Origin: Owenia fusiformis
Taxonomy: Eukaryota
Length of the DNA: 64,000 bases
Assembly: GCA_903813345.2 (NCBI GenBank)
Contig: CAIIXF020000001.1
Coordinates: forward strand, 20,274,001-20,338,000
Direction of reading: 5' to 3'
The notes under the pieces are model-generated. The model worked only from the letters and a program-made list of their open reading frames with translations, had not been told where the DNA came from and searched no databases. The stretch's first letter is position 1. Each line of letters opens with the position of its first letter. The position numbers and the translations under genes are program-made. Positions 31,119-53,665 of this stretch are shown piece by piece.

Positions 31119-31838
31119 TTACGAAATTGTACAACTTGTGTTAGCTTTTGATTTTCTTAAATTAGCATTCGATTTATAATTTATAAAAGTCAATGGTACT
31201 GATTTTCTTCTCTCTCCACGAGCGTCTGTTCTATGGCTATCTGTACTGTCTGATTGATCATTTTCTCGGAGGTAATGTTTTTTGGTTATATCACTGAATA
31301 AGGCAGTGATATTGACATCGTGTTTAGCAGTCGTTTCAATGTATACGTCACATCCCCATTCAACAGTTGCGATAATGTCAGCAGTTATAGAACAAACCTC
31401 CCTCTCAGATTCAGGGACGTCGGACTTGTTTGCAACAATGACAATATAAGTGGGTTTGTTTCTTCGTTCTTCGAGGATTTCCTGTCTCAGTCTGTTAACT
31501 TCCTCGAACGATTTTCTGTCATCCAGGGAAAAGACAAGAATAAACGCATGGCTGATGGTCATTGAAAGCCTCATCATCGCGGGGAATTGGTAGCTACCTG
31601 TCGTATCGACAATCTCCATCATCTGAACGTCATTTTTGCTGATTTTGTACTGTTTCTGATGAAAGTCCTCAACGGTCGCCTCGTGTTTCTCGATAAAGGT
31701 GTCATTCATGAAGCGGTTTACGATGCACGTTTTGCCAACCGCTGCTGCTCCCATTACCGCAATCCTAAGAGGCTTGGACTTGCCTGTAGAACTGCCATCG
31801 GTCCTCGTCATCTTGGTACTCGAGCTTCTCCCCTTCAT
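31119..31838 (-). CDS. Ras-family small GTPase of DIRAS/RASD(Rhes) type, intronless, CAAX-terminated
   Basis: G1 GAAAVGKT, G2 ATVEDF, G3 DTTGSYQFPAM, G4 NKSD, G5 ETTAK, C-terminal CTIS. Confidence 0.93.
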   Translation of the reverse strand: MKGRSSSTKMTRTDGSSTGKSKPLRIAVMGAAAVGKTCIVNRFMNDTFIEKHEATVEDFHQKQYKISKNDVQMMEIVDTTGSYQFPAMMRLSMTISHAFILVFSLDDRKSFEEVNRLRQEILEERRNKPTYIVIVANKSDVPESEREVCSITADIIATVEWGCDVYIETTAKHDVNITALFSDITKKHYLRENDQSDSTDSHRTDARGERRKSVPLTFINYKSNANLRKSKANTSCTIS

Positions 31839-31904
31839 GGTCGATCTTAGCCAGATATGGATAGATTGGTAGAAAGTTCTTGTTTAGATTCAACGTCCAG
31901 TTGT

Positions 31905-37771: not shown

Positions 37772-38090
37772 CTGTAAAACGGGTATTGTTAGCGAGGGGT
37801 AATTATTAGCGATTGTTAGCGATCGCTATAGTTTCGCTAAAAATTCAATTCGCTAAAATAAACCGGGGTTAAAATAAACCAGGCGCTAAAATTTGCAAAA
37901 ATATAAAGATAAAAGGTGTTAATTGAACACGGTTCAACAACGAATGATATTGCTTAAATTCTCCCGTACCATTTCGCTAATTTGATTTTTTAAAGATTAA
38001 TCTTCATTTCGCTAAAATTTCCCGCGCTAAAACCCCCTAAAATTAAAAAATCGCTAAAATTTCCCGGTGTCAAAATTACCCGTTTTACAG
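37772..38090. mobile_element. Small TA-flanked MITE
   Basis: TA|CTGTAAAACGGGTA ... TACCCGTTTTACAG|TA, with internal TTAGCG/CGCTAA repeats. Confidence 0.75.
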
Positions 38091-38711
38091 TAATTGTATG
38101 TCATGTCATAATTAAAACCATTAACTTTGCAACTAATATTCCATAATTTTTAGATGATTGTAAGATGTGTATCTTGAAACGATCGTATCACCAAGATGAA
38201 GCATCAAGCTTAGTAGATAGATATCACACCAAACTAGTTTTTACCCGTTCTTGCCAGTCCTACGAAAACGTCGTCAAACGGGCTCAATCTGGCTGAACGT
38301 ATCGACCACGAGAACATTTTGAGCATGTTCTAAGTTCTAGAGGACCAAACGGTTCTTAGTAGGACCAGTCCGTTCGTATACAGTTGAAGCCCGTTTTCAA
38401 GAACGCAGTGAGAACTAGTTTGGTGTGATAGTAGGGTTATTTTGTGTTTAAAATACTAGTACATATCCCGATAGTATCTCCTGACAGGGATCATTATTGC
38501 ACCGATCTCGTCGGCCATTAATTATGTTCAAGTTGAAGGTCTGGGGTTAAGGAGTGGTATAAATTGTATTGTCTTGCATTCTATTGCAGCAAGTATAAGG
38601 ATAAGCAGTACGATCACGAAGTTCATCTTCTATATCGATTCTGTGAAGGGTTGGATATCAGAAGCAGGTAATTGAACTTACCTAGCTCAGGATAGTGATA
38701 CTGTTAATTAA

Positions 38712-39033
38712 AGGCAGAATCAGATCTATAACGGCCAACAACATTACAAGCGGCACAAGCAATATGTACATTTGGCCTTACAATTTATTCCTTATGATCT
38801 CAAATACAATATTTCCCAAAAGATCCCCGATATGGTATAACTTCGTGCAAAAATGGGGGAAAATGGGGAAAAGCGTTTAAATAATAAAAAATGGTAACCA
38901 TAAAAAAAATTAATTATAATATTTTTTTTGTTTTCCTGGAATAAAATACTGAGCCAAAATTTTTCTAAAATTGAAACAATTTTTTATTAAAACTAAAAGC
39001 TAACTTGATGGTTCGCTAGATCTGATTCTCTCT
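38712..39033. mobile_element. TTAA-type MITE, second copy
   Basis: Same ends and body as 30627-30985. Confidence 0.65.
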
Positions 39034-39369
39034 TGAATAAAACAAGGTATTACTATTAATATATAAAAGTGTCATAACTGCCATTTGTTACAGACACCGA
39101 ATACCAGACGCTGGACACCAACCACCGTCACCAAGACGATAACAATATGCTGATATATCACCACTTTTGATGATGACATAGAAAGAAACAAGAACACACA
39201 TATAATAATCAATATAAAATCACATTTTTTTTAAATTAAAATTTGTATCCTAGACCTCTTATACAACTTACTTTGAACATCCTTCTTCTGAATTCAGTTA
39301 CTATACAAAATCTTTAAGACAAGATTTCTCTAACAGTATTGCGTATATTGAAATGTACAAAAATAAGTC

Positions 39370-40167
39370 TCAAAAGTATGAGGACATGTAGCCCTTATCC
39401 CTCTGAATCTGTTTAACCTTCTCATCAATATTAGCATAATATTTCAGCCTTGACAACAACTCTTTGGCCTTCTTGATATTCTCATTTGCAAAGGCATCTG
39501 TTAATTCTACAATAAAACCGTTAATAATTTTACGATTTTCTTTCTGTATTAACCTTACTGTGTCTGCATTATCAGCACTATTGGCCAATGTTTCATTCAC
39601 TTCCATAATGTCCATAAGGAAATCGGGTTCAAATTCAATCTGATCTTCCTCTATAGTTTCACCATGTAATTCAAGGAGATAGAGCCCCCTAGATAACGGC
39701 TTAAGCAATGTATTATATGCCTTGTTTACAATGCTAGATTGGGCCTCGGAATATTCCCTTTCAAGATCAGACTTCTGGCTGTATTTATCAGGATGTAAAT
39801 GTTTCTGTAGCCCTCTATAATGTTTAGTTAAACTATTGGTGTCAATGTCAAACTGCTGCGGTGTTCCCATTATTTCAAAGTATGACCAATCAGAATCTAA
39901 AGGCTGAATTATTCCACACTTGCAGAAGTACACTTCCAGTTCATCTAATTTTCTCTTACATTTCCAACAGTGGCGGTGTTTTCCATGTTCATTGGATTCT
40001 GTACATAACCATCTTCTTCCCTTGTGTCCCTCCACACTAGAGTCTACCATTTGAGCGTTACTAATTATTTTTTGTTTTACAATAATGGATAAAGTCGGGG
40101 ACTGCCTGGACATAGAATTTGCCAGGGATACACGAAAAATCCTCTTACATAGCATGGATAAAGCCAT
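39370..40167 (-). CDS. HSCB: Iron-sulfur cluster co-chaperone HscB/HSC20, mitochondrial, intronless
   Basis: Basic presequence-like N-terminus, CWKC...FCKC metal motif, J-domain with HPD (LQKHLHPDKY), SSIVNKAYNTLLKPLSRGLYLL, FLMDIMEVNE, RLKYY. Confidence 0.96.
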   Translation of the reverse strand: MALSMLCKRIFRVSLANSMSRQSPTLSIIVKQKIISNAQMVDSSVEGHKGRRWLCTESNEHGKHRHCWKCKRKLDELEVYFCKCGIIQPLDSDWSYFEIMGTPQQFDIDTNSLTKHYRGLQKHLHPDKYSQKSDLEREYSEAQSSIVNKAYNTLLKPLSRGLYLLELHGETIEEDQIEFEPDFLMDIMEVNETLANSADNADTVRLIQKENRKIINGFIVELTDAFANENIKKAKELLSRLKYYANIDEKVKQIQRDKGYMSSYF

Positions 40168-40213
40168 GTTTCTTCTCGTGAAAAAATGAAGTTCCTTGGA
40201 AAAACTTAAAACT

Positions 40214-40315
40214 TCAGTCAGAGTCTATGGCTTCAGTTCTTGCAGTTTTTTTGTTTTTCTTAGATTTCTTTTTATTACTTTCAATCTCCGCACATGAATC
40301 TTCCAGATAATCAGC
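40214..40315 (-). CDS. CENPS: CENP-S/MHF1 terminal coding exon
   Basis: tttctctttctag| acceptor, phase 0. ADYLEDSCAEIESNKKKSKKNKKTARTEAIDSD* gives the helix and lysine-rich tail expected for CENP-S. Confidence 0.8.
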   Translation of the reverse strand, partial: ADYLEDSCAEIESNKKKSKKNKKTARTEAIDSD

Positions 40316-40694
40316 CTAGAAAGAGAAATTATTTATATATGTTATGTAAATAATAATAAAAAATATTTATGATTATATTTGCAAATGGTGAATTGATTTG
40401 TCTTGAGATGTTGAAGGACAGAATAATAAGAACATTTCAATGGATATTGTAAAATAAACTTTGAATGTTATCCTATTAAAGCCAATCATGATCAGCCATG
40501 CACTAGCTCATGAGTCAAATTTCTTATTAAGTCCATTATTTAATAATTTCATATTGCGCTAATAAGCATACATTATATCTCATCAATCGTGATTTACATA
40601 GGTTACACATATTTTATTTAAAAACTACCTGCACTGAGTCATTGCACTCAGGTTATCAATAAGGACAATTCAATGATTATTTTGTCACATGAAA

Positions 40695-41841
40695 AACCAG
40701 AACAACGGCAACGCCAAAGCATGGTGAATCCCATGGAACATAAGAAGCTGTCATAAGAAGAAGTAATATGCTTTTAAGTAGCCACCTATAAAATTCTTAA
40801 AAAATGGCACACATGTACTTGTAAATGGTGGCCATGTTTTAAAATGGCCACCTTCTACCCAAAATGTCAAAAGACAGTATGCAATGCTTATGAGTATTCA
40901 TATGTCCAATATGAACAAAATCGCTCTATTACTTTTTGAGTAAAAAAAAAGTTTAAAAAAAGTAGAAAAAGTAAAATAACACTCATAAAAATGGTGGCCA
41001 TTTTTCAAAATGGCCGACTACTCCCCAAAGTTTTATTTGACAATGTGCCATGCTTAAAGTATTCACATATCAAATATGAACAAAATCGCTCCACTACTTT
41101 TCCAGTTATAGTAAAAATGTCCGCCTACTACCCAAAGTGTCATTAGACAGTGTGCAAGGCTCAGGAGTATTCACATATCAAATATGAACAAAATCGCTTC
41201 ACTACTTTTCAAGTTATAGTAAAAAATGTAAAAATGGTGGCCATTTTTCAAAATGGCCACCTACTACCCAAAGTGTCATTAGACAGTGTGCTATGCTTAT
41301 AGTATTCACATATAAAATATGAACAAAATCGCTCTACTACTTTTTGAGTTATAGTAAAAAATTGTAAAATAACACATGTAAAAATGGCAACCATTTTTTA
41401 AAATGCCCTCCTATGACCCAAAATGTCATTAGACATTGTGCCATGCTTAAAATATTAACATACCAAATATGAACAAAATCGCTCCACTACTTTTCAAGTT
41501 ACAGCAAAAATCGTTAAATGACGCGCAAAGGCAGCCATTTTTCAAGATGGCTGCCATGTATTTCTTCTATATTTACATTTCTAGCTTAATCAATGTCCTA
41601 TATAATTTTTTTACATTTAAAACATATCGCAATTGCAGTTTTATATGAAGTACCTAAATAACTGTAAAATCGGCACTAAAATGGCCACCATTTTGAAAAT
41701 AGGTTCTCGAGCAGAACTTCTACCCCCATTGGTTATATGTGTACAAAATCGGGCTAACAGTATTTGAGTTATTTCCCGGACGGACGGACAGACGGATGGA
41801 GGCGTTCCCTATATCCCTCCGAACTTCGTTCGATGGGATAA
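40695..41841 (-). mobile_element. HINE-type element with tandem core repeats, in the CENP-S intron
   Basis: Hairpin end, (GGAC/AGAC)n microsatellite at 41778-41800, repeats homologous to the 25845 array, and a 3' stem-loop at 40697-40735. Confidence 0.75.
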
Positions 41842-42087
41842 CAATATAAGACAAGCTCATTTGGTAAGTAAAGGATATTAGATATATTATGGGCTTTCTC
41901 TTGAATGCTACTGGACATATGAACCAGGCTTCAAAAATTTTGTTCTCTTAATTTTGATATATCTGAAAGACATTCAAATCTCAACTGATATCATTTTATC
42001 ATCTAGCTGCAACAAAGTGTTCTGTACAGTGTTGCCCTCTTTAAATGGTGTTATTCTCCACAGTAGATAAAATTAGGGAACTCATTA

Positions 42088-42293
42088 CAGTGATCTCCAC
42101 AGGATTTTTTCTCAAGTGGGTGCAAAATTCTCCTTTTCACAATTTAGACCGATATTGGTCGAAATATGCCCATTTTTCATGATTTTTCTCATTTTCAAGT
42201 GGTTGCAAATGGACTTTTAGGTGGGTGCAAGCTTATTTTCAAAATCTCAGGTGGGTGCTGCGCCCACTTGCTTTAATGCTGAGGAGATCACTG
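42088..42293. mobile_element. Small hAT-like MITE
   Basis: CAGTGATCTCC...GGAGATCACTG, flanked by CATTA on both sides. Confidence 0.7.
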
Positions 42294-43860
42294 CATTACA
42301 TATCCATGTATAAGCTATTATACATGTTCTATTCAGTGTAACCATATTAAAACAACATTGGGTTTCAAGAAGATTCCATCACTCATTCCAAAATTTGAGG
42401 GTTGCATTTCTGGGGACAGCAGAGGGGGAACAGAAAGTTATATGAATGCAATTTGAACTCATACCAGTCATCTTAGGACAGAGGGTTGTTCCAAAAAAGA
42501 AAGTGTGGTACTGGGTACCCAACATCGTAGCAGCAAAGAGGACCACTTGACTTTTTAGAACAAATAGGCCTCTTTCAAATCTGGTTTTATCAATTGTTCA
42601 TTTTGGGAGGAGAAATTCAAAGAGCAAACTATGCATTATCTGGTTTTATTATATGCCCGGCCCATATGTATTCTAGATGCTTGTTGGCTTATTCATGGGC
42701 ACATGATATGAAATAGATGAACTAATTCCCTGGAAAGTCCTAAAACCCTGCTAACAGGGAAGATGAAATGTACTAATGACCAGTTACAGTGCTTTCAGTA
42801 GGCTTGTCCAAAAGTGCTTCCTTGGGACGGATTGATTTTCCAAAATTGCGCCCCCCCCCCTCTTAAAAGTGCGTCTCCATGAAAAAAGGTTCCCGGGAAT
42901 TCAAAGTCACATTTTTGCACTGAACGAAAAAGATTGATGAAAAGTTTGCATCAGTTTTGTTATTTTTTGGCCCAGATCAGTGTTCTACACACGTCTAGTA
43001 GGTCATTAAATGATGCAGATACCTTCATATGAAAGAGGTAACTAATATTCAACCATTAAATACCATTTTTTCGCGTATTTTAAAGCAATTTGCTATTGAT
43101 TTTGATCGCTCAGAAAGTTTTATTAGGAGCAATCTCCGTAAGGTTCCATTCTTTGGTTCAGTTTTTTGCGCATGCGCAACAAATCCAGCAATTTGATTTT
43201 AAAATTATCAAGACGCATGCGTGATTAATAATCGCGGCCAATCATAGGACTCATTCTGATTACCGCTCGGAAATCAACTACTAGTGATTGTCCTATCACA
43301 TACCTCATACTATATTGATCGGAAATCAACTTCCGGGAAAGAAACTCCGAAAGATAATTTTATTTCTTTTAGAAATAGAATATCCTTCGTTTATTTAGCG
43401 GATTTTGACTGAATAAAAGATTGAAGGTAAGATCTTTATCAATCCATTCATCCAGAGATGATTTTTTGATATGACCTGCACTGCGTCCAAGTGACCCCTC
43501 ATTTTCATTGTTTGGGGTCCCTATAATAAAAACCGGGTCCTCTCCATTATGGGACGGCGTTAATGAAAGCACAGAGTTAGGTCATGTGACCAGTCATTAG
43601 TACATTTTATCTTCCCTGCTCACTGGAATTATAGGAGTTAAGTGGCAAAAAGCCTTAAAGAGCCAAGAAGAACCTGTAAGCATTCAATACTGAAATTAAG
43701 ACTAATTTTGTTTTGTTTACAGAACACATATGGGGTATATAATAAAACAAATACTGACTGTCACATTTTCGGGAAATAGTGAAAAATTTTTACCCTTGGG
43801 AAAAATATTTTTCACTATTTCCCTCAATGCTTGACAGTCATTATTTGTATAACAACTTAC

Positions 43861-43927
43861 CAGTTGAGGTGTAGTTCTTACTAACAGTTTCACATCATCA
43901 CAATTTATTGTTGTTCGCCTAGCATGC
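43861..43927 (-). CDS. CENPS: CENP-S/MHF1 internal exon
   Basis: ttttag| ... |gtaagt, 67 nt, phase 2-0. HARRTTINCDDVKLLVRTTPQL matches the histone-fold HAKR.TI..DVKL motif. Confidence 0.92.
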
Positions 43928-44046
43928 CTAAAATGATTTCAAAAATATTCATAATTGCATGCATCAGTATACAAAATCAAAAAATTTGGATGATTTAACA
44001 CTATTTTCAAACTGTACATTGATTGAACTTCAAATGATGCACATAC

Positions 44047-44213
44047 TTAGCAAAAAGTTCCAGGTCAGTTGTCCACTTCTGTAACTGTTTAAATGTGGCC
44101 TCTGCTAATATGTTCTTGAAATGCACAGAGAACTGGGTCCCATGAAAGTCCTCCTCCTCTTCAAACTTTGTACAACACTTGCCTACTCCATAGTGGATGG
44201 CAGCTTTCAATTT
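44047..44213 (-). CDS. CENPS: CENP-S/MHF1 internal exon
   Basis: ctttcag| ... |gtatgt, 167 nt, phase 0-2. KLKAAIHYGVGKCC...DLELFAK matches CENP-S RLKAAVHYTVG...DLEMFA. Confidence 0.92.
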
Positions 44214-44500
44214 CTGAAAGTAAAGAATTGCAAAACTCTTATTTATAATGTTTAGAACATGCAGAAATATGAGTAAAGACATTAGAGTTATATCACATTG
44301 CATGGCTGTAGAGTAAGGCAATACATCTCCCCATACAGAGATTCTTTCTCATAGGCCCATGGTTGTTTATTCGAAAGAGGGGTGTATAATAAAGAATTTT
44401 CTCTCTTTCTAAAGGCCCAAAGGCATTTATTCAAGTGTCTCACAAGTGCTTTTAAATAAACATTCACTAGGCGAAACATTAGAGGAAAGTATTCTTAAAC

Positions 44501-44545
44501 CTGCATATCACTTTATAACGCTATCTTGGGTTGTTCTAGGGTCAA
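44501..44545 (-). other. CENPS: Candidate CENP-S start-codon exon (ATG CAG at 44506-44501)
   Basis: ttacag| acceptor and CAG|gtttaa donor give MQ|KLKAA in the correct phase (113-aa protein). Other start exons are not excluded. Confidence 0.4.
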
Positions 44546-45019
44546 CTGTAACATTTTGAGAAATATTGAAAGAATCAATATAAGTAAGTATGGATCAAAT
44601 GATTATAGACTGCATGATGAATTAAGGTCTCATGGCAGTTAAGAGCAAATGACAAAACGAAGAGATGACAAAAAACATAAGATAAAATATTTTTCTGACT
44701 GACCTACCCCAAAAAGAATTGAGTAAAATTTTAATGAAAAATAAAATAATCCTCCTACCTACCTACCCTAATCTGAAAATACATGGAGCAGGAAACAGGC
44801 ATATATTTTTGTTTGGCCTTATTAGGATAATAGTGGTGGTTAATAGATATAATGTAATGGGTAGAAGTGCAACTCCTCTGGCAACATTTAAGTTTAGTGA
44901 ACACCTTCAATAAGTCAAAACATCAGAAAGGATAACATAAAAAGAAATATAACTTGATTCATGTATTTCCCGAAAAAAATCAAAATATTTCTGTGCTTAA
45001 CCCCATAATACAGATAAAA

Positions 45020-46558
45020 ATTACTACCGTGGGTACTGGGCTCACATGGTGTTGCTCAAAAGTGAAAATAAAAAAGACTTGTATAATTTTTTGCAGATTT
45101 TTTGTGACAAAATTATTTCATTCAACTACTCTTTACAAAGACATGGCTTTTTACAATGCAGGACACCTGAACTTATTTGTAAAGCTAGGAAATGGGCCAA
45201 AAGTGAATTTCCCGAGACAAAAATGGTGGCCATTTTGAAATTAAGCGAGATTTTGAAGCAGGAGTCACAGGTTTTTTTTTGTTTATTGACGTTGAACAAA
45301 ATTATTTTAAATCGGGAATCCTATCTACAGAGGATTTAAAAAGTGTTGACAGAGGTTTAAAACTTGCCACTTTTTTGGACTGACTGAGAGACAGATGGAC
45401 GAATCAATTTTAACTAAAATGGCTGAAAATAAAAAAAACTGATATAATATTTTGCCGATTTTTTGTAACAAAATTATTTTATACAACTATTCTTTACAGT
45501 GACATGGCTTTTTACAATGCAGGACAGCTGAAATTATTTGTAAAGCTAGGAAATGGGCCAGAAGTGAATTTCGCGAGACAAGAATGGTGACCATTTTGAA
45601 AATAGGCGAGCTTTTGAACCAAGAGTCAAAGGAGAGTTTTTTGTATTGATGTTGAACAAAATTAACTTAAAACAGGAATCCTATCGACAGAGGGTTTAAG
45701 GCAAATGGTCCAAAAGTGGATTTTGCGAGACAGATGGACAAATCAATGTTAACTAAAATGGCTGAAAATAAAAAAATGGATATAATTTTTTGCTGATTTT
45801 TCGTAACAAAATTATTTCATACATCTACTCTTTACATTGACATGGATTTTTACAATGTAGGACACTTGAAATTATTTGTAAAGCTAGGAAATAGGTCAAA
45901 AGTGAATTTCACGAGACAAAAATGGCGGCCATTTTGAAAATAGGCGAGCTTTTGAGCCAGGAGTCATAGGGGAGTTTACTGTATTGATGTTGAACAGAAA
46001 TAACTTAAAACAGGAATCCTATTAACAGAGGTTTTAAAACGTGCCACTGTTTTTGACGGAAAAGTGGATTTCACAAGTCAGATGGACAAATCAATGTTAA
46101 CTAAAATGGCTGAAAATAAAAAAAAAGATATATTTTTTCGCTGATTTTTTGTAACAAAATTATTTCATAAATCTACTCTTTACATTGACACAGATTTTAC
46201 AATGTAGGACACCTGAAATTATTTGTAAAGCTAGGAAATGGGTCAAAAGTGAATTTCGCGAGACAAAAATTGCGGCCATTTTGAAAATAGGCGAGCTTTT
46301 GAACCAGGAGTCATAGGGGAGTTTTCTGTATTGATGTTGAACAGAAATAACTTAAAACAGGAATCCTATCGACAGAGGTTTTAAAACGTGCCAGTCAAAA
46401 GTGAATTTCGCGAGACAAAAATGGCGGCCATTTTGAAAATAGGCGAGCTTTTGAACCAGGAGTCATAGGGGAGTTTTCTGTATTGATGTTGAACAGAAAT
46501 AACTTAAAACAGGAATCCTATCGACAGAGGTTTTAAAACGTGCCACTATTGTTGACGG

Positions 46559-46593
<35 letters not shown>

Positions 46594-46635
46594 GACAAGT
46601 GAGCGATTGCAAAAGCTCACCATGTGAGCTAAAAA
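45020..46635 (-). mobile_element. HINE/pearl-type element with ~340-360-bp tandem core
   Basis: On the minus strand: TTTTTAGCTCACATGGTGAGCTTTT start, (GTCC/GTCT)n, 4-5 tandem units, and a 3' GTGAGC plus TACC-CAC-GGTA hairpin. Confidence 0.8.
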
Positions 46636-47368
46636 ACCAGATGGATAGCTGTCATTTCTAAGAATTGGATGTTCCCCAATATACTGAAGATCTGATGAGC
46701 CAGGAGGCTGTTTCTCGAAACTTATCAGGGCTCTCGCCAGGCTTTTAGACTGTGGCGCAGTACCACACTCTATTTAGCTCCCTCCACACCCTAATGGCAA
46801 ATCATGACTGTTTCCACAGTCTAAACTTGACTAAATATATAATAATAGCATGTAAAAAGGATAAAACATAACATAAATATGATTTATCACGATTGAACGG
46901 TTATTCTGATGATGTTAGCACCACACCCTAAATATTTCCTGGTGAGGGGCCTGCTTATCGTTATTATGAATTGTTGATAGCATTTCTATGGACACTGCAT
47001 GGTTAGTGGAACACAGGACCCCCATTCTTACTCGTAAAATCAATCATGGATAACGAATCAGTTTAAATCATGACGTCATCGTGAATAGTTATCTTTCGAG
47101 AAACGGAAAAATCGTTATTAACAATTAAATTGATGATTCGCAAATAACGGAACTTTCTAGATACGGCCCCTGTTTCTAAAACAATGATTGAATGCGTTGG
47201 ACCATCACTGCACAGGCTACCGAGTAAAATTACCTACCACTCTCTGAATCAAAAATGGAGGTCTGTGTCCAGTATTTCCAGTTGTACCAAACAAAATATT
47301 GGACACGTTTCTATCCTCTGATAATTGTAGAATTGATTTGTTCTGGACAACTCTAGCCTAGAGTTGAT

Positions 47369-48778
47369 CTACTATTTTTTTCAAGGCCTGTCTGCGTCGC
47401 TAACATGCTAAATATAAGAGTTAGCTGACGTTTGGGAGTCTGACTTACCTTCTAAAGGTTAGAACCCGAATCTTAATGAAACCATATCACCTTTGTTCCG
47501 TCAACCATGGAGCATTTGCCACAACATCCAAGAGGTAAATCATGGATCGAGAAAATGAATGATTTCCTTGTAAGTTCCGGAAGTTTCAATACGAAAAATT
47601 ACCGAACATATGTGAAAACCGAATATTTGTTCGTTGTTTTGGTCTAAATTATAAAGCATCACCAACAGGTCTTTCTCTATTAATCGACTAATACAGCAGA
47701 CGGCTCATATTTCTACAGTGCTGGTATATATTAATTGATTAGTCGTTTTATTGCCATATTTTCTTGAATTTTAACATTTAATGTCCCAAACTCACACAAA
47801 CTGCAGAAAAGTATACACCATAAATCATATATACCAAAATGAGTGTCTCCAAGGCTTCACACCAGCGTATGCATAGTTCATTTGTCACGAGTTTGAGCTG
47901 AAATTTCGCCAAAATGAAGTAGGCTCAGGGTAGTCTCTGCCAGGTTTGTTTATTGTGGTAAGCTTGTAAGTGCTCAGAAGCAAATAATTCATGTGCGCAA
48001 AATAATCAAATAATCTGATTGGTTAAAACTTTGCTGCACATGCGCACAATATATGCCATGTTTTTTCTAGTGATTTCGTTTCGTTTCATGGAGTTTGCGT
48101 TTCAGTGTAACTTCCGCAAAAATGGCGGACCATGAACAGAATTAATAGGTAAAATCACTTCGTAATTTCAAGAGAACTTTTTACCTATAATAGCAAAACT
48201 TTTGTTTTATTTGTGCATTCTATCTATCAGATAAGAGTCTCAGGGGTATGTAGGCAAATTTATTTTGGTAGGAGCACTCTAGTTTAGTTTGTAAACGCAC
48301 CCTTAATTATTATATATCAGCACTGTACGTAGCATTTCATTCAGACCAATAGTGGGAGTGTAGATCACGCAGTTTCGTTCGTTGCGTACTTCACTTGAAA
48401 TTGGTAATTTTTAATATTAACTACTTCACTTAGCTTGGCGGATGTAGAACATTGCTTAATATTCTTTTAATTTTCACACCAGACATGCTTGGTTGACACG
48501 TCAACAAAGTAAAGTTCAAGGGTCAATGCGTTATTTCGTGATAACTACAACGCCTTCCCGGAAGTCAACATTGATGAAAAATGAAAAAGTCGGAAAAGCA
48601 TTTACGCTAATTTCTATCAAATGCTATGTTTATGCATCATCATCGACGCAACAAAGGTGATATAGTTTCATTAAGATTCGGGTTCTAACCTTTAGAAGGT
48701 AAGTCAGACTCCCAAACGTCAGCTAACTCTTATATTTAGCATGTTAGCGACGCAGACAGGCCTTGAAAAAAATAGTAG
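47369..48778. repeat. Near-perfect ~130-bp inverted repeat pair (47369-47497 / 48650-48778) around a promoter-like spacer
   Basis: The arms differ at about 1 position and each holds an outward-facing AG|GTAAGT. The spacer has CCGGAAG and AAAATGGCGG motifs. Confidence 0.85.
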
Positions 48779-49395
48779 GCTACAAGCTTACTCTGTTCCG
48801 CTTCCGATGCCTTTAGATTTGACTAAGAAAGTGATTCCAAAAGAAGTCTGCACGGAAACGGACAAGAATCCACCTCGTATGCAACTACCAGATGTATCTT
48901 AAACACAATATCAGTTAATAGTTGTAGAAATAGCAATATTTACCGTAGAATATTGATGTTTTTCTTCCTATTTTCAACTAGGAAGATTCAGTGTTCTTCT
49001 GACCTTGACCTTGGATTTCGTAATTTTCACAAATATAAATCTAGACTATTTCCTTATTCTAACGCATTCAATCATTACCATTAATCTAATATGTTTATTA
49101 AGGTTCTTTATACTATCATCTATATTAATACTGATTATAATGAACAAATTACCTGTCGTATTGCTAGATTCTCGTACTGTTCTCCTTCATTTGCCATTTC
49201 ATTGAATTTGGCGCTCGGAAAATCTAAAACACAAACTCGGTGGCAAACATGACACGCCACGCACTAAATCCAAGTCTCGAACCCCGGGGAGCAACCACGG
49301 ACTTTTAATTACCATTTGAGCCTGTCAGCGGCGAAACCAGGATCTAAAAAATAGACAAACGAGGCAAATTTAAGAGGACTCATCTCTACTAGCCG

Positions 49396-51277
49396 CAGAG
49401 CTGTCAAGTGTCCCGCGAATGGCGGGATTATCCCGCTAATTCGATCAAAATTAGGCTAATTCGCGTGTCCCGCAATGTCCCGCGAAGTCCCGCAAATGTG
49501 GCTTTCGACCTCCGCGAATTTCCGAAATTGTTGCAATCCCCTATATGGTGATTATCTAATCTTATATAAGAAGCTAAGTTTTTGCACTTTTGAGGAGTAA
49601 AGTTTACCTAATTTTAAGTACCTAGCATGCTGTTGTTTGGTATCAAAATAAAGAGGAAGGGTTCAACTTTCATTTTAATTACGACAATAGGGATGTAGGT
49701 CACAAATAGTTCCAACGTTGGCCTTTTTACTATCCGTGTGGCCTTCACCTCAGAACTGAGCAAATGTTAGCAAACGTGAGTTACAATAAATGGACGCTGA
49801 TATCTAGAAAGGGTTTGTAGAAAAAACTGGGTACCGGGTAGTAAATCCTCCATGCTGGGTTCAAACTTGGTACCCGTTACCCGGTCAAAAAACGGGTAAG
49901 CTTACCCAAAAACAAAAAATATACGAGTATAACATAATTAGATTATCAGAAAACGTGTAAGATTTGTTTTGAATTTACAAAAATGTGTGTAACATCCTTC
50001 AAAATTGAGCTAGAAGCTTCAAATAAAAAGCATATTTTAAGGCTCTTTTCTTCCTCTATCGTCATGACCATATTTTCATTGGTTATGGGGGGGGGGAGTG
50101 CGATCGCACCATCGCACCCTCTCCTGGCTACGCCTATGACATTGTAAGACATAACAATTTAGTGGACAATTCAGTGGACATTTTGTCGACAGTTGGGATA
50201 ACTTAAATTATGATTAATAATCAAAATCTTACACATTGCATCATGTAAATTAACACACGTCACCTCTCTGCTAAAGCAACGATAGCAATTTACAGATTTA
50301 AATCATTATCAAAACAATTCACGTACCAACATACGAACTATTGAAAATAGAGTAAAATTGATTTGCCTTGTTATTCAAATCGTCTTACAATGTCATTGGC
50401 GTAGCCAGGAGAGGGTGTGATGGTGCGATCGCACCCCCCCCCCCCTTCATTACCAATGGAAATATGACCATGATGATAGAGGAAGAAAAGAGGCTTAAAA
50501 TGCTTTGTATTTGAAGCTTCTATCTCAATTTTGAAGGAAGTTACATACATTTTTGTAAATTCAAAACAAATCTTACACGTTTTCTAATGATCTAATTATG
50601 TTGTATATTCGTATATTTCGTTTTTTGGGTACCGGATTTTTTCGACCGGGTACCAAGTTTGAACCCAGCATTGAGGATTTACTACCCGGTACCCGGTTTT
50701 TTCTACAAACCCTATCTAGAAAAGTAACCTCATTCCCTATAATTTGATGTAGATTAATCGAAACCCTATACCATGGGCTTTCAAATGAAATAATATTTCT
50801 ATGCGTATTTTGTGAAGTTATGTTGACGTTTATTTAAGTTACAATGTAACGGTGCATTATATTTGATTAATTATCAGTATCTGAAAGTTTGATTTAAGTA
50901 CTTTTACACGCTTTTACATTAGTCCAAATCACGCAAATCCCTTGGATGTCCCGGGACATCCTGCAAATTTAGGTGGATGTCCCGCGAAATCCCGCAAATT
51001 TAGGGCACTTTTTCTAGAAAATCTGTCCCTCTATGAAGTTTTTGCTGGTAAACCTGTTAACTGTCCCGCAATTAGGGTGTTTGTCCCTCGAATGGTCCCG
51101 CGAAATCCCGCGAATTTGATAAAAAAAAATTGGCCTATAAGCGCAATCACGCAAATCCCTTAAATGTCCCGCGAAATCCCGCGAATTTAGAAGATGTCCC
51201 GCAAAATCCCGCGAATTTTGGGCACTGGGTCTAAAAAATCTGTCCCGCGAGAAAATCTTTGGGGGTTGACAGTACTG
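49396..51277. mobile_element. hAT-like MITE with TCCCGC subterminal repeats
   Basis: CAGAGCTGTCAA...TTGACAGTACTG, flanked by TAGCCG on both sides. Confidence 0.7.
49810..50713. mobile_element. Nested fold-back hAT-type element
   Basis: Inverted arms of about 340 bp (AGGGTTTGTAGAAAAAAC / GTTTTTTCTACAAACCCT) and 8-bp TSD ATCTAGAA, matching the NTCTAGAN target of Charlie-type hATs. Confidence 0.8.
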
Positions 51278-51380: not shown

Positions 51381-53665
51381 AGGGAACCTGGGGCAAAACG
51401 GCCCGTAAGTTAAATTTTAAGTTGTTCCGTATGGGGTATTTTCTTATCTGTCAATCATCGCGCACTTTATTAATGGGTTGTGGTTTACATTTTTCGAGTC
51501 TTTTATACTTGCCTAGGACTATCTTCGATGATTTATCAATGGTCAAAAATAATATCGGGATTGGAGCAAAACGGCCCAAGGGTGGGGCAAAACGGCCCAC
51601 CCTCTGTTACTAGGGCTTTAAAACCAAGATTAATCAATTACACGACTCGTCCACAGACATCTTATCTCCGACGTTTTTACATTTGACAGCATTTTTAACC
51701 CCTACCAGTTCTACTCATTGTGTCGGAAGGAAATAAGGTATAAACCAAATGTTAAAATCTTTCAATTTCAATTTCAATTTATTAAATATATATGCATACA
51801 ACAATACAAAGATGATGAAGGGAGCGAGACACCACTGAAAGTTGTATGGTGCCCCTATAACAATAAAAGATTCATATGAGTTAGCATCATGAAGATTATG
51901 AAAAGCAAGGGTCCTAAAATTGAGCCTTGGGGAAAGCCACATGATATCGTTTGTTTGTTGGATGAATTAATATTGTTATATGTCACATATTGTTTACGGT
52001 TGGATAAGTAATTTTTAAACCATTGGTGAGGAGATACTACGAATACCATAAAAATCCATTTTTGTAATAAAATGTCGTGATCTAGGGTATCGAAAGCTTT
52101 ATACAGGTCTAGGAATAGTCCAATACAATGAGTTTTAGCTTCAAGAAAAGTTCTTATTTTTCAACAAAATTCAAAATGGCCATAGAAGTAGATCGATTTT
52201 TCCTAAATCCATATTGCGGTTTGTAGAGGATCTTGTATTTTTCGAGATATTTAGAAAGTCTATTATACATCAGTCTTTCAAGAAGTTTTGAAAAAATAGA
52301 GAGCAAAGATATTGGTCTGTAATTAGAAAACTGATCTTTTTTCCCTTTTTTAAAAATTGGGATAACCTTAGCAACTTTTAAAGAGTTGGGAAAGAGTCCT
52401 TTGGTAAAAGATAAGTTGAAAATGTGAGTAAGAGGGAAAACAACTGCTTCACCACATGTTTTTATGAGTTTGGGTTTAATGTCATCATCACCTGATGCAG
52501 AGTCCTTCAGCTCCTTAATAAGTTTGGAAAGTTCAAAATGAGTTACAGGTGACAAAAACATAGAGTTAACATTTCGTTTTAGTTTACTCATAAGCTCAGC
52601 AGGCGATTTATCAGCATTTCCTATCTTTTTAGCCAAGTTAGCACCGACAGAGGCAAAATCTTCATTGAAAGTATTTGAAATTTTTGTATCATCAGATATT
52701 TTCAAATTAGATATAGGACAAACAAAAGAGTCGCATAAATTAAGATTTTTCTTTTTTCTGGCTAGAATTTCATTAAGTGAGTTCCAGTTTTTTTTATATT
52801 GTTTCTAGCATTAGCTTTTTTATCAGAGTAATACAGTTTTTCAGAATGTTTTAATATTTGTTTAAATTTTTTCTTGTATAATTTATATTCTTTGAGTTTA
52901 TCTGGAGCAGGATTTTTTAGATATTGTTTTAGAATGTTTTAATATTTGTTTAAATATTTTCTTGTATAATTTATATTCTTTGAGTTTATCTGGAGCAGGA
53001 TTTTTTAGATATTGTTTGTACATTTTGTTTTTCTTTTTAGATGAAATTACAATACCTACAGTTATCCAGGGTTTGGAGTTGTTCTTTATCATTTTAATTG
53101 TTTTAGTTGAAATTGGAAAACTATCATTGTACTTAGTTTCGAGCAGGGTCTTGAAATTGGAGCAGGCAAGGTCTGGACTGGTGGTCTCATTTAGTACACT
53201 TTCCCAGTTGGTGTTTTCTAATGATTGTTATATTTATATATGATATCAATTATTCTTGTATAATAAGATTTTTGTATGTTATAACATGTGTGGGCCGTTT
53301 TGCCCCAGAGACATGTGCATTTTCAAATAGACGTCATTTTAATTTACCTAATATTTGAAACTCGAAATTTTGACAAATAAAGAATAAATATACTCTATGT
53401 AAAATGTTAATTCAAATTCAAAATGATATTCTATTGTTGCCGGATTTTTTAGAGATTCTCGTGGGAGGGGTAATTTGCAAAAAAAAGAGAGTGAAAAGTA
53501 GAATTACCTCTTATGTAAGGCGAGACGCTGCCAGATTAAAAAAGGGCGGTCGAAAAGGTGACGGAAATTCGATTATGTGACTTTTGAAGAACCATCCTTT
53601 TATAGTTCAAAAGATATTTCGATGGGCCACTTTGCCCCATAGGGCCGTTTTGCCCCATGTTCCCT
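51381..53665. mobile_element. pogo/Tc1-like MITE hosting a LINE insertion
   Basis: AGGGAACCTGGGGCAAAACGGCCC ... GGGCCGTTTTGCCCCATGTTCCCT. Confidence 0.7.
51760..53260 (-). mobile_element. Decayed CR1/L2-group LINE (RT fragment)
   Basis: KPWIT.GI, KVAKVIPIFKKG, NYRPISLLSIFSKLLERLM, QYGFR and GFPQGSILGPLLF motifs across broken frames. 3' tail AATAAA(TTGAAA)n at about 51762-51785. Internal deletion and ~90-bp tandem duplication. Confidence 0.9.

Follow-up and report, generated by a model that had tools for sequence, protein, structure and literature searches.

An intronless HSCB reading frame shares one spliced dicistronic mRNA with CENP-S in a lophotrochozoan-like invertebrate

The window, by which we mean the whole 64,000-nucleotide stretch of DNA that we analyzed, carries on its minus strand a four-exon gene for the histone-fold protein CENP-S/MHF1 and, within the terminal exon of that gene, a complete reading frame for the co-chaperone HSCB (Table 1).

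Table 1. Features of the CENP-S/HSCB locus, in window positions
Feature	Positions	Strand	Description
CENP-S exon 1	49153-49248	minus	Placed by X1 contig match and reading-frame arithmetic
Intron 1	44214-49152	minus	About 4.9 kb, repeat-rich
CENP-S exon 2	44047-44213	minus	First part of histone fold; Pfam, PDB, splice joint
CENP-S exon 3	43861-43927	minus	End of histone fold; Pfam, joints on both sides
Intron 3	40316-43860	minus	3545 nt, GT..AG, repeat-filled
Terminal exon, CENP-S part	40214-40315	minus	Lysine-rich C-terminal tail, 33 codons, then stop
Intercistronic spacer	40168-40213	minus	46 nt, bridged by X1 contig
HSCB reading frame	39370-40167	minus	Intronless, 265 aa; ATG 40167, stop 39372-39370
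3' UTR	39047-39369	minus	Extends at least to 39047; X1 contig 39047-40073

Joined across its four exons (coding parts 49153-49197, 44047-44213, 43861-43927, and 40214-40315), the CENP-S frame comes to 381 nt, that is, 126 codons and a TGA stop at 40216-40214, and introns 1 and 3 lie in phase 0. The Pfam CENP-S profile, 76 positions long, is matched by exon 2 with 41.5 bits at positions 1-53 and by exon 3 with 29.0 bits at positions 55-76; both scores exceed the curated cut-off of 28 for the CENP-S/MHF1 family (PF15630). Nine distinct CENP-S sequences in the PDB match as well, the best being 4ne3_A (E = 1.2e-5). Members of this family form a heterotetramer with CENP-X and bind CENP-T-W or FANCM.

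A sequence-only reading of the locus had begun CENP-S at an ATG at 44506, a start exon that we rejected, since it falls inside intron 1 and RNA on the gene's strand reaches a depth of no more than 0.09-0.32 in the bin 44384-44617 across three runs. Instead, an X1 RNA contig continues for 93 letters past 44216, and the first 30 of these, on which the placement of exon 1 rests, match 49156-49185 exactly. Given this match, the true exon 1 ends at 49153, with a GT donor directly after it at 49152-49151. In it lie a 5' UTR of 51 nt or more, the CENP-S ATG at 49197-49195 with 15 codons, and a 12-codon upstream open reading frame (uORF) that is out of frame and starts at 49202-49200. Tandem repeats occupy 45389-46597 in intron 1, and intron 3 contains both dispersed repeats and tandem ones (41007-41510), just as the sequence-only reading had described the intron ahead of the last exon. 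Elsewhere in the window, reverse-transcriptase fragments occur at 51858-52804.

The downstream frame matches the Pfam HSCB_C profile with 65.4 bits (cut-off 22.1) over profile positions 2-74 of 74, and its residues 96-163 match DnaJ with 29.1 bits (cut-off 27.8). Its HPD motif falls at residues 125-127, with H125, P126, and D127 invariant in 13/13 aligned sequences, and is included in the 26 columns at which the window HSCB carries the residue common to all 12 aligned homologues. In the PDB, it matches human HSCB (3bvo_A, E = 4.9e-39 over residues 63-252) and Escherichia coli HscB (1fpo_A, 1.9e-17). Profile and PDB comparison thus find in it both a J domain with HPD and a C-terminal HSCB domain; in the HSCB/Hsc20/Jac1 family, this three-helix C-terminal domain binds ISCU. 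Ahead of the J domain, a CxxC...CxC set lines up with cysteines in human HSCB and other homologues, although the Pfam HscB_4_cys model gives no match at E 0.01, and the basic N-terminus, whose first acidic residue comes no earlier than position 42, is a putative presequence as judged by eye. The closest relatives are only 49% identical in a collection of 5.8 billion proteins that includes this assembly's own copy. The identities first proposed for both genes are upheld by Pfam matches above cut-off.

Reading both frames bears out the earlier description of an intact HSCB ATG on the same strand as the CENP-S stop, with 46 nt between them. The spacer contains neither ATG nor AATAAA. On the minus strand from 40613 to 38988, the only AATAAA is at 40276-40271, where it lies within CENP-S coding sequence, as had been noted before, and precedes the stop by 55 nt; the next are at 38988-38983, the first canonical signal past the HSCB stop, and at 38789-38784. 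Since 46 is not a multiple of 3, readthrough of the CENP-S stop cannot fuse the two frames, as the sequence-only reading had also argued. The HSCB frame is further interrupted by a TAG at 40227-40225, and therefore a frameshift upstream of it, including one at the A7 run at 40246-40252, cannot fuse them either. An acceptor-like pyrimidine run and AG occur at 40196-40195, 27 nt ahead of the HSCB ATG, and the frame is open from 40194 to that ATG. The region 40138-40315 is predicted to fold no more stably than shuffled sequences (z = +0.6).

To ask how this locus is transcribed, we used three stranded raw-read RNA runs from a single study (X18-X20, values given in that order) and the X1 contig set. 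Almost all reads are oriented as minus-strand RNA. The GT..AG joint between exons 2 and 3 (43926/44046) is covered by 91/73/67 reads, and that between exon 3 and the terminal exon (40314/43860) by 80/69/68 reads and one X1 contig, which upholds the last exon first assigned to CENP-S. With 151-nt reads and 20-30-nt anchors, the 80 junction reads, at a depth of 137 (137/111/131 at 40245), are what would be expected if essentially all molecules were spliced from exon 3. Normalized depth is 119/92/91 over exons 2 and 3, 124/95/111 over the CENP-S tail and spacer, and 141/102/102 in the first HSCB bin, giving a ratio of the HSCB 5' bin to the CENP-S tail of 0.92-1.14, whereas the intron 3 bin at 40406-40639 is nearly empty (0/0.88/0). 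One X1 contig (record 2) spans 40126-40314, and a further 48 letters carry it over the splice into exon 3; with 42 letters on the HSCB side, it reaches HSCB codon 14 from exon 3. Beyond the HSCB stop, depth falls from 37/20/30 to 12/4/2 and then to about 1, fading between ~39250 and ~38970.

Given the continuous and equal depth, the empty flanking intron, and the bridging contig, we conclude that this is one transcription unit and that, at the level of short reads and k-mer contigs, the CENP-S and HSCB frames share one spliced dicistronic mRNA. The earlier proposal that HSCB belongs to the CENP-S transcription unit is thus sustained, and the observations named at the time as contrary to it, a separate start pile for HSCB and a CENP-S 3' end before 40167, do not appear among the rows listed, which are the best-supported ones. 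No separate HSCB transcript is visible among these rows, although the depth ratio leaves room for what may be a minor extra HSCB-only RNA. Nor does the locus look like a spliced-leader operon, since the spacer has no AATAAA and depth is undiminished through it.

The explanation that we prefer, to which we give a probability of about 60% as a whole, is a single RNA polymerase II unit, an mRNA-derived HSCB, and translation of HSCB by reinitiation. The unit would run on the minus strand from ~49250 to ~39000. In the resulting spliced mRNA, the 126-aa histone-fold protein would be encoded by exons 1-3 together with 102 nt at the start of the terminal exon, and the same terminal exon would then supply the spacer, the complete intronless frame for the mitochondrial Fe-S co-chaperone, and the 3' UTR. 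CENP-S would be made by ordinary cap-dependent scanning. Some of the ribosomes that terminate at its stop would remain on the A/U-rich, unstructured spacer and reinitiate at the HSCB AUG, the first that they meet and one in a strong context (AACATGG). By a second conceivable route, ribosomes that initiate at the uORF would skip the CENP-S AUG that it overlaps and reach HSCB past tiny reading frames only.

We favor reinitiation after the CENP-S stop, a preference suggested by the AUG-free spacer, the AACATGG context, the short internal frames, and the lack of stable structure. The internal frames are those of seven out-of-frame ATGs within the CENP-S coding sequence, which span 1-12 codons and all stop 113 nt or more short of the HSCB AUG. 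By a rough estimate, seven further ATGs between the two starts is about what base composition predicts, and the locus therefore does not show the shortage of AUGs that is typical where leaky scanning operates. The CENP-S AUG itself is flanked by G at both -3 and +4. A first frame of 126 codons is long for efficient reinitiation.

Second cistrons are usually poorly translated, and this favors an alternative in which the dicistronic RNA is the abundant one but a minor monocistronic RNA gives most of the HSCB protein. Such an RNA could arise from transcription that begins within the terminal exon, from splicing of phase 0 exon 1 to the AG at 40196-40195, whereby nine extra codons would connect the CENP-S AUG in frame to HSCB, or from spliced-leader trans-splicing at the same AG. 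The pyrimidine run and AG ahead of the HSCB ATG, the frame open from 40194, the phase 0 introns after exons 1 and 3, and an HSCB 5' bin up to 1.14 times as deep as the CENP-S tail are all compatible with this, as are two operon-like loci in other animals in which AATAAA and a strong acceptor precede the HSCB ATG. However, among the joints listed, which include joints of 3-4 reads, none runs from exon 2 or 3 into 40194; no pile of read begins or ends appears between 40167 and 40316 among the rows listed; and no polyadenylation signal separates the cistrons. Moreover, the depth ratio of 0.92-1.14 implies that monocistronic RNAs account for no more than about a tenth of the RNA that contains HSCB. 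To our knowledge, spliced-leader trans-splicing is not known in molluscs, which we count against a spliced leader at 40196-40195. We therefore regard a mainly monocistronic source of HSCB as unlikely, if a serious contender.

It is also conceivable that the HSCB frame is an untranslated young retrocopy carried in the CENP-S 3' UTR while a working HSCB lies elsewhere, although we consider this quite improbable. Its lack of introns, its position 3' of a complete reading frame, which is poor for translation, and the presence of reverse-transcriptase fragments in the window would all suit such a passenger. Yet all 265 codons are intact and align with homologues end to end, the putative presequence, four cysteines, HPD, and full C-terminal domain are all present, and no parent copy closer than 49% is on record in the 5.8-billion-protein collection. 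The optimal AUG context and AUG-free spacer likewise argue against it. Finally, that the juxtaposition is an artefact of assembly or mapping, with HSCB reads coming from another locus, is hardly credible: all reads disagree with the reference at 39637 and 39859 and nothing else specific points that way, whereas exon 3, the CENP-S tail, the spacer, and HSCB are linked on an RNA contig, between 0.74 and 0.87 of the sampled words from 39200-40330 are present in 16 runs of 4 studies, and no joints or loose ends occur at HSCB intron positions among the rows listed.

Returning to the dicistronic reading, we considered how an intronless HSCB came to lie here. In at least eight other eukaryotic HSCB loci, paired tblastn segments show a split at residue ~135-140 (L015, L023, L026, L031, L046, L047, L053, and L055), and the window HSCB is continuous at that point, as a processed retrogene would be. 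This part of the retrocopy origin suggested earlier stands. Its other expected traces are missing: around HSCB we found only low-complexity or chance direct repeats and no target-site duplication, and the sole candidate tail is an A8 run at 39232-39225, which is not a convincing poly(A) remnant. With neither trace present, the HSCB copy is not young. HSCB most likely arrived, or lost all of its introns, via an mRNA intermediate, and a retrocopy origin is plausible but unproven.

The arrangement has animal parallels. The human mRNA for RPP14 (124 aa) is reported to carry the frame for mitochondrial HsHTD2 in its 3' UTR, and that report describes the translation mechanism as not established, with leaky scanning and/or reinitiation assumed (PMC4705651). 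As far as that account goes, both loci place a frame of ~125 aa for a nuclear protein first and a longer one for a mitochondrial protein in the would-be 3' UTR. They differ in that RPP14/HsHTD2 pairs a vertebrate RNase P subunit with a fatty-acid-synthesis dehydratase, whereas CENP-S and HSCB are paired in a lophotrochozoan-like invertebrate, with the downstream frame intronless inside the terminal exon. The same source lists MOCS2A/MOCS2B, SNURF-SNRPN, and GDF1-CERS1 as pairs of frames on mature animal mRNAs (PMC4705651), and Drosophila Mocs2 is described as dicistronic (PMC5817353). In these accounts the MOCS2 frames overlap, and their products are two subunits of a single enzyme, whereas those of CENP-S and HSCB are 46 nt apart and have no known shared function. 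Two-gene mRNAs in animals are thus an uncommon but already known kind, of which the CENP-S/HSCB pair is a further case.

Spliced-leader operons occur in nematodes, tunicates, rotifers, and others. In the two operon-like loci mentioned above (L035 and L012), as in the window, HSCB lies head to tail and at a very short distance behind another gene on the same strand, Tim29 in L035 and an AK6-like gene in L012. The upstream stop in those loci is followed by AATAAA, the intergenic gaps are 110 and 126 nt, and a strong acceptor lies just ahead of the HSCB ATG; in contrast, the window has no AATAAA between the cistrons and RNA depth undiminished through the spacer. Green-algal polycistronic loci have first frames with weak start contexts and few AUGs. 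Their capped, polyadenylated mRNAs are reported to carry at least two translated frames, reached by leaky scanning (PMC7896298, PMC11892635). On that description the window is unlike them, with G at both key positions around the CENP-S AUG and seven more ATGs before HSCB.

No CENP-S match lies close to HSCB in any of 80 metagenome loci. One metatranscriptome contig (L001), however, carries a 64-aa NOP10 frame (Pfam Nop10p, 82 bits), a 19-nt spacer, and a full HSCB frame of 261 aa, 49% identical to that of the window; a 3' UTR with AATAAA comes next, and the contig closes with an A tail. Like the window, it sets HSCB a short spacer behind a nuclear-protein frame, although NOP10 takes the place of CENP-S and only one assembled contig shows the pair. 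At human CENPS-CORT, the CENP-S gene also reads through into a downstream gene, but there the products are spliced fusion transcripts, whereas the window has two separate reading frames in one exon.

Short reads from three stranded RNA runs of one study, carrying the same species label (X18, X19 and X20), were aligned together with an RNA contig set (X1) to positions 38300-45300, which include CENP-S exons 2 to 4 and the intronless HSCB ORF. Exon reads were almost exclusively in minus-strand RNA orientation in all three runs. GT..AG joints connected exon 2 to exon 3 (43926/44046; 91, 73 and 67 reads in X18, X19 and X20, respectively) and exon 3 to the terminal exon (40314/43860; 80, 69 and 68 reads, plus one X1 contig). 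The 80 junction reads, found at a depth of 137, match the expectation if all molecules are spliced from exon 3 (151-nt reads, 20-30-nt anchors), and the intron bin adjoining the terminal exon (40406-40639) had depths of 0, 0.88 and 0. In addition, one X1 contig (record 2) runs over 40126-40314 and on across the splice into exon 3, spanning the spacer and 42 letters of the HSCB side. Given these data and the depths along the unit (see the table), we conclude that HSCB-containing RNA and CENP-S RNA are one population, to within about 15%.

Joints and loose ends were read from the best-supported rows of lists with a further 69 joints and 692 loose ends. Among the piles of read starts or ends listed, none fell in 40167-40316. 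The loose ends listed for the raw-read runs have at least 91 reads, a level below which leader or exon-1 sequence joined at 40194 could fall. No listed joint led from exon 2 or 3 into 40194, and because these joints go down to 3-4 reads, alternative splicing of that kind is rare at most. Three observations had been named that would speak against a shared unit: HSCB having a start of its own, polyadenylation of CENP-S ahead of 40167, and another last exon. Among the signals listed, all three were negative. The results show one transcription unit, with the CENP-S and HSCB ORFs on one spliced RNA population. At the 3' end, depth fades at about 39250-38970 and an X1 contig reaches 39047. The RNA differs from the reference there, with a variant cluster at 39225-39260 and a 1-nt deletion in an A8 run, and these many variants may lower the number of aligned reads. 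Separately, intronic repeats at 40874-42277 and 44852-45300 showed depths of up to 235 in raw reads and tens of thousands in X1, and loose ends and back-joints were numerous there; these repeats are dispersed families transcribed from many loci, outside the CENP-S-HSCB mRNA.

The CENP-S gene model required one correction. The sequence-only reading had started CENP-S at 44506, where RNA depth on the gene's strand was only 0.09-0.32 (bin 44384-44617). An X1 contig extends 93 letters upstream of exon 2, and the 30 of these that were examined match 49156-49185 exactly, the sole match in the window. An ATG at 49197-49195, with G at both -3 and +4, lies ahead of that stretch, and CAG and a GT donor come after it. 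Because exon 1 now lies at 49153-49197, the unit is about 10 kb long instead of 5 kb. The last exon, which starts at 40315, adds a lysine-rich tail and closes the CENP-S ORF at the TGA first read at 40216-40214, and exons 2 and 3 also match solved CENP-S chains. The minus-strand A7 run at 40246-40252, within the tail of CENP-S, has an additional A in 10 of 137, 10 of 111 and 9 of 131 RNA reads (X18, X19 and X20), at 7-10 distinct start places; the X1 contig does not have it. Read by hand, this insertion would place the CENP-S stop 18 nt earlier, exchange the final 10 residues for 4 and give a 64-nt spacer. Possible sources are an allele of low frequency in pooled animals, slippage of a polymerase, and an artefact of the library.

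Features of the CENP-S-HSCB unit and of other HSCB loci (depths are for X18/X19/X20, normalised to exonic bases per bin; L-numbered loci are from metagenomes and metatranscriptomes)
Feature	Position	Strand	Observation
CENP-S coding sequence	49153-49197 + 44047-44213 + 43861-43927 + 40214-40315	(-)	381 nt, 126 codons plus stop
CENP-S exon 2	44047-44213	(-)	Pfam CENP-S, 41.5 bits (cut-off 28)
CENP-S exon 3	43861-43927	(-)	Pfam CENP-S, 29.0 bits (cut-off 28)
DnaJ domain	HSCB ORF	(-)	Pfam, 29.1 bits (cut-off 27.8)
HSCB C-terminal domain	HSCB ORF	(-)	Pfam, 65.4 bits (cut-off 22.1)
CENP-S exons 2 and 3			depth 119/92/91
CENP-S tail plus spacer			depth 124/95/111
First 234 nt of HSCB			depth 141/102/102
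Second HSCB bin			depth 120/91/99
Third HSCB bin			depth 80/66/58
End of HSCB plus start of 3' UTR			depth 37/20/30
Loci with HSCB match split at residue ~135-140	L015, L023, L026, L031, L046, L047, L053, L055		
Tim29 upstream of HSCB	L035:2984-4569	same as HSCB	110-nt gap
Tim29 close upstream of HSCB	L055:225-1970	same as HSCB	
AK6-like kinase upstream of HSCB	L012:619-1853 / L047	same as HSCB	126-nt gap
AK6-like kinase	L004	convergent with HSCB	
KDEL-receptor ORF upstream of HSCB, same strand	L017:73-1554		GC-rich transcript, 208-nt gap

The short interval between the ORFs is as first described: 46 nt from the CENP-S stop to the HSCB ATG, free of ATG, with the nearest same-strand AATAAA inside CENP-S coding sequence (40276-40271) and the next ones at 38988-38983 and 38789-38784. 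Most likely, scanning ribosomes would read CENP-S from its AUG, in view of the G at -3 and +4, and those terminating at its UGA would resume on the spacer and then read HSCB. The spacer is A/U-rich, the HSCB AUG lies in the context AACATGG, and RNA structure around the spacer was no more stable than in shuffled sequences (z = +0.6), features that together are compatible with reinitiation. A possible second route involves the 12-codon uORF that overlaps the CENP-S AUG. Ribosomes bypassing that AUG could still arrive at HSCB, because CENP-S contains seven out-of-frame ATGs whose ORFs have only 1-12 codons and all stop 113 nt or more ahead of HSCB. Between 38800 and 40400, the one known RNA element to come up was snoR28 on the opposite strand, a chance match (20.8 bits; gathering score 45), and there were no tRNA genes in 38000-50000. 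Bacterial-type promoter and terminator scans, irrelevant to an animal gene, gave background levels.

With 126 codons, the first ORF is long, which counts against efficient reinitiation; HSCB may be needed in small amounts only. A minor monocistronic RNA might supply most of the HSCB protein, an alternative that we consider less likely. For a fused protein, the sole route left is hypothetical and minor: a splice into the acceptor-like AG (40196-40195), whose frame would agree with the phase-0 donors that follow exons 1 and 3. Stop readthrough cannot fuse the two proteins, as had been argued from the spacer, whose 46 nt set HSCB in the +1 frame; frameshifting at the A7 run or A-rich tail was rejected, since a TAG at 40227-40225 interrupts the HSCB frame, leaving only 19 open codons ahead of the ATG, and prevents joining by readthrough or by a frameshift upstream of it.

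The HSCB ORF itself is intact, as originally read, with 265 codons from the ATG at 40167 to the stop at 39372-39370. Among solved structures, its best match is the human mitochondrial protein HSCB (3bvo_A, E 4.9e-39, residues 63-252). In an alignment with 12 homologues, it keeps all 26 set-invariant columns, including H125-P126-D127, and its CxxC...CxC cysteines line up with theirs. The nearest named relatives are HscB-like proteins of bivalves, nemerteans and echinoderms, at 46-49% identity, which makes the source an invertebrate animal and probably a lophotrochozoan. A large protein collection that includes this assembly's copy contains no HSCB closer than 49%. The ORF is probably the working HSCB gene. 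Two positions within it, 39637 and 39859, mismatch the reference in every X18 read (97 of 97 and 108 of 108) and in all reads of X19 and X20; these mismatches, like the variants at 39225-39260, are strain or allele differences.

The suggestion that HSCB is a retrocopy is plausible. Among 80 metagenome loci encoding HSCB relatives, 8 eukaryotic loci were matched by tblastn in two pieces that abut at query residue ~135-140, and at several others the match starts at residue 136-140; this split points to an old, widely shared intron. HSCB in the window has neither that intron nor any other, a structure that fits arrival via an mRNA copy or wholesale intron loss. The retrocopy reading finds no target-site duplication or convincing poly(A) remnant on its side, the only possible tail remnant being the A8 run at 39232-39225.

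No CENP-S was found near HSCB in the 80 loci by tblastn with spliced CENP-S (two chance matches, E 5.5), and none of 38 homologues of 145-464 aa had a CENP-S domain fused to HSCB. One locus (L001, positions 53-1049) is a 1316-nt transcript contig with an AATAAA and an A tail, in which a 64-aa ORF (Pfam Nop10p, 82 bits) is followed after 19 nt by a full HSCB ORF of 261 aa, 49% identical to that of the window. This single assembled contig is a second, independent dicistronic RNA with a small nuclear protein ahead of HSCB, and it hints at a recurrent pattern. Other upstream neighbors are listed in the table. In L035 and L012 (grouped with L047), an AATAAA follows the upstream stop and a strong acceptor lies just before the HSCB ATG, signals that resemble those of spliced-leader operons; together with L017, these loci look like ordinary operons or compact genomes.

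A more speculative extension, which we regard as improbable, is that intronless HSCB is a habitual second cistron in lophotrochozoans, lodged in the terminal exons of varied small, proliferation-linked nuclear-protein genes, such as CENP-S here and NOP10 in the unrelated L001 transcript. If true, HSCB would normally be made by ribosomes that reinitiate once they have read a short-to-medium upstream ORF, the gene would have changed hosts by retroposition while retaining its mode of expression, and the supply of an Fe-S co-chaperone would be coupled to chromosome and ribonucleoprotein maintenance genes.

Dicistronic nuclear mRNAs exist in animals, and, except in Drosophila and the trans-splicing phyla, natural ones whose second ORF is of full size are rare. 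To our knowledge, the mode of second-ORF translation is unknown for most such animal mRNAs. The CENP-S-HSCB arrangement is a real feature and a clean case, in which a 126-codon ORF and an AUG-free 46-nt spacer precede an ORF for an essential mitochondrial protein. Because the pair is specific, the first ORF long and no major separate HSCB transcript apparent, it offers a good natural model for second-cistron translation, and the locus could be a natural place to study how ribosomes reinitiate when the first ORF is long. There is a practical consequence, too: predictors that allow one ORF per transcript annotate only one of the pair, and either CENP-S or HSCB may then look absent from such genomes. 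The most similar known case is human, where the mRNA of RPP14, a nuclear protein of 124 aa, carries the ORF of mitochondrial HsHTD2 in its 3' UTR; passages of PMC4705651 describe this two-ORF mRNA. MOCS2 is another animal dicistronic case, the one meant by "bicistronic" in passages of PMC5817353, and polycistronic loci of green algae are the subject of PMC7896298 and PMC11892635. Among the papers listed by our searches, none linked HSCB with CENP-S or NOP10 or dealt with dicistronic HSCB, and the 20 papers listed of 4,915 on dicistronic genes in molluscs, bivalves or oysters were only viral and mitochondrial.

Upstream, a 12-codon, out-of-frame uORF starts at 49202-49200, 5 nt before the CENP-S ATG, and overlaps the CENP-S start; it is transcribed if the 93-letter X1 extension is colinear. 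The heptamer GCGGGAC, which may resemble E2F sites, occurs on the minus strand four times within 84 nt (49410-49493), from 210 nt ahead of the CENP-S ATG, and six more times at 50979-51248, out of 12 copies in the window against 1.25 expected. These copies may form a cluster of promoter sites or belong to a motif spread by repeats. A retroelement fragment lies some 2.6 kb upstream of the first CENP-S exon, with reverse-transcriptase (RVT_1) matches of 50 and 32 bits in two adjacent open frames (51858-52804, minus strand). Elsewhere, on the same strand as CENP-S-HSCB, a 254-codon intron-free frame at 31122-31883 (minus strand; Pfam Ras, 118.5 bits) is possibly another intronless gene or retrocopy.
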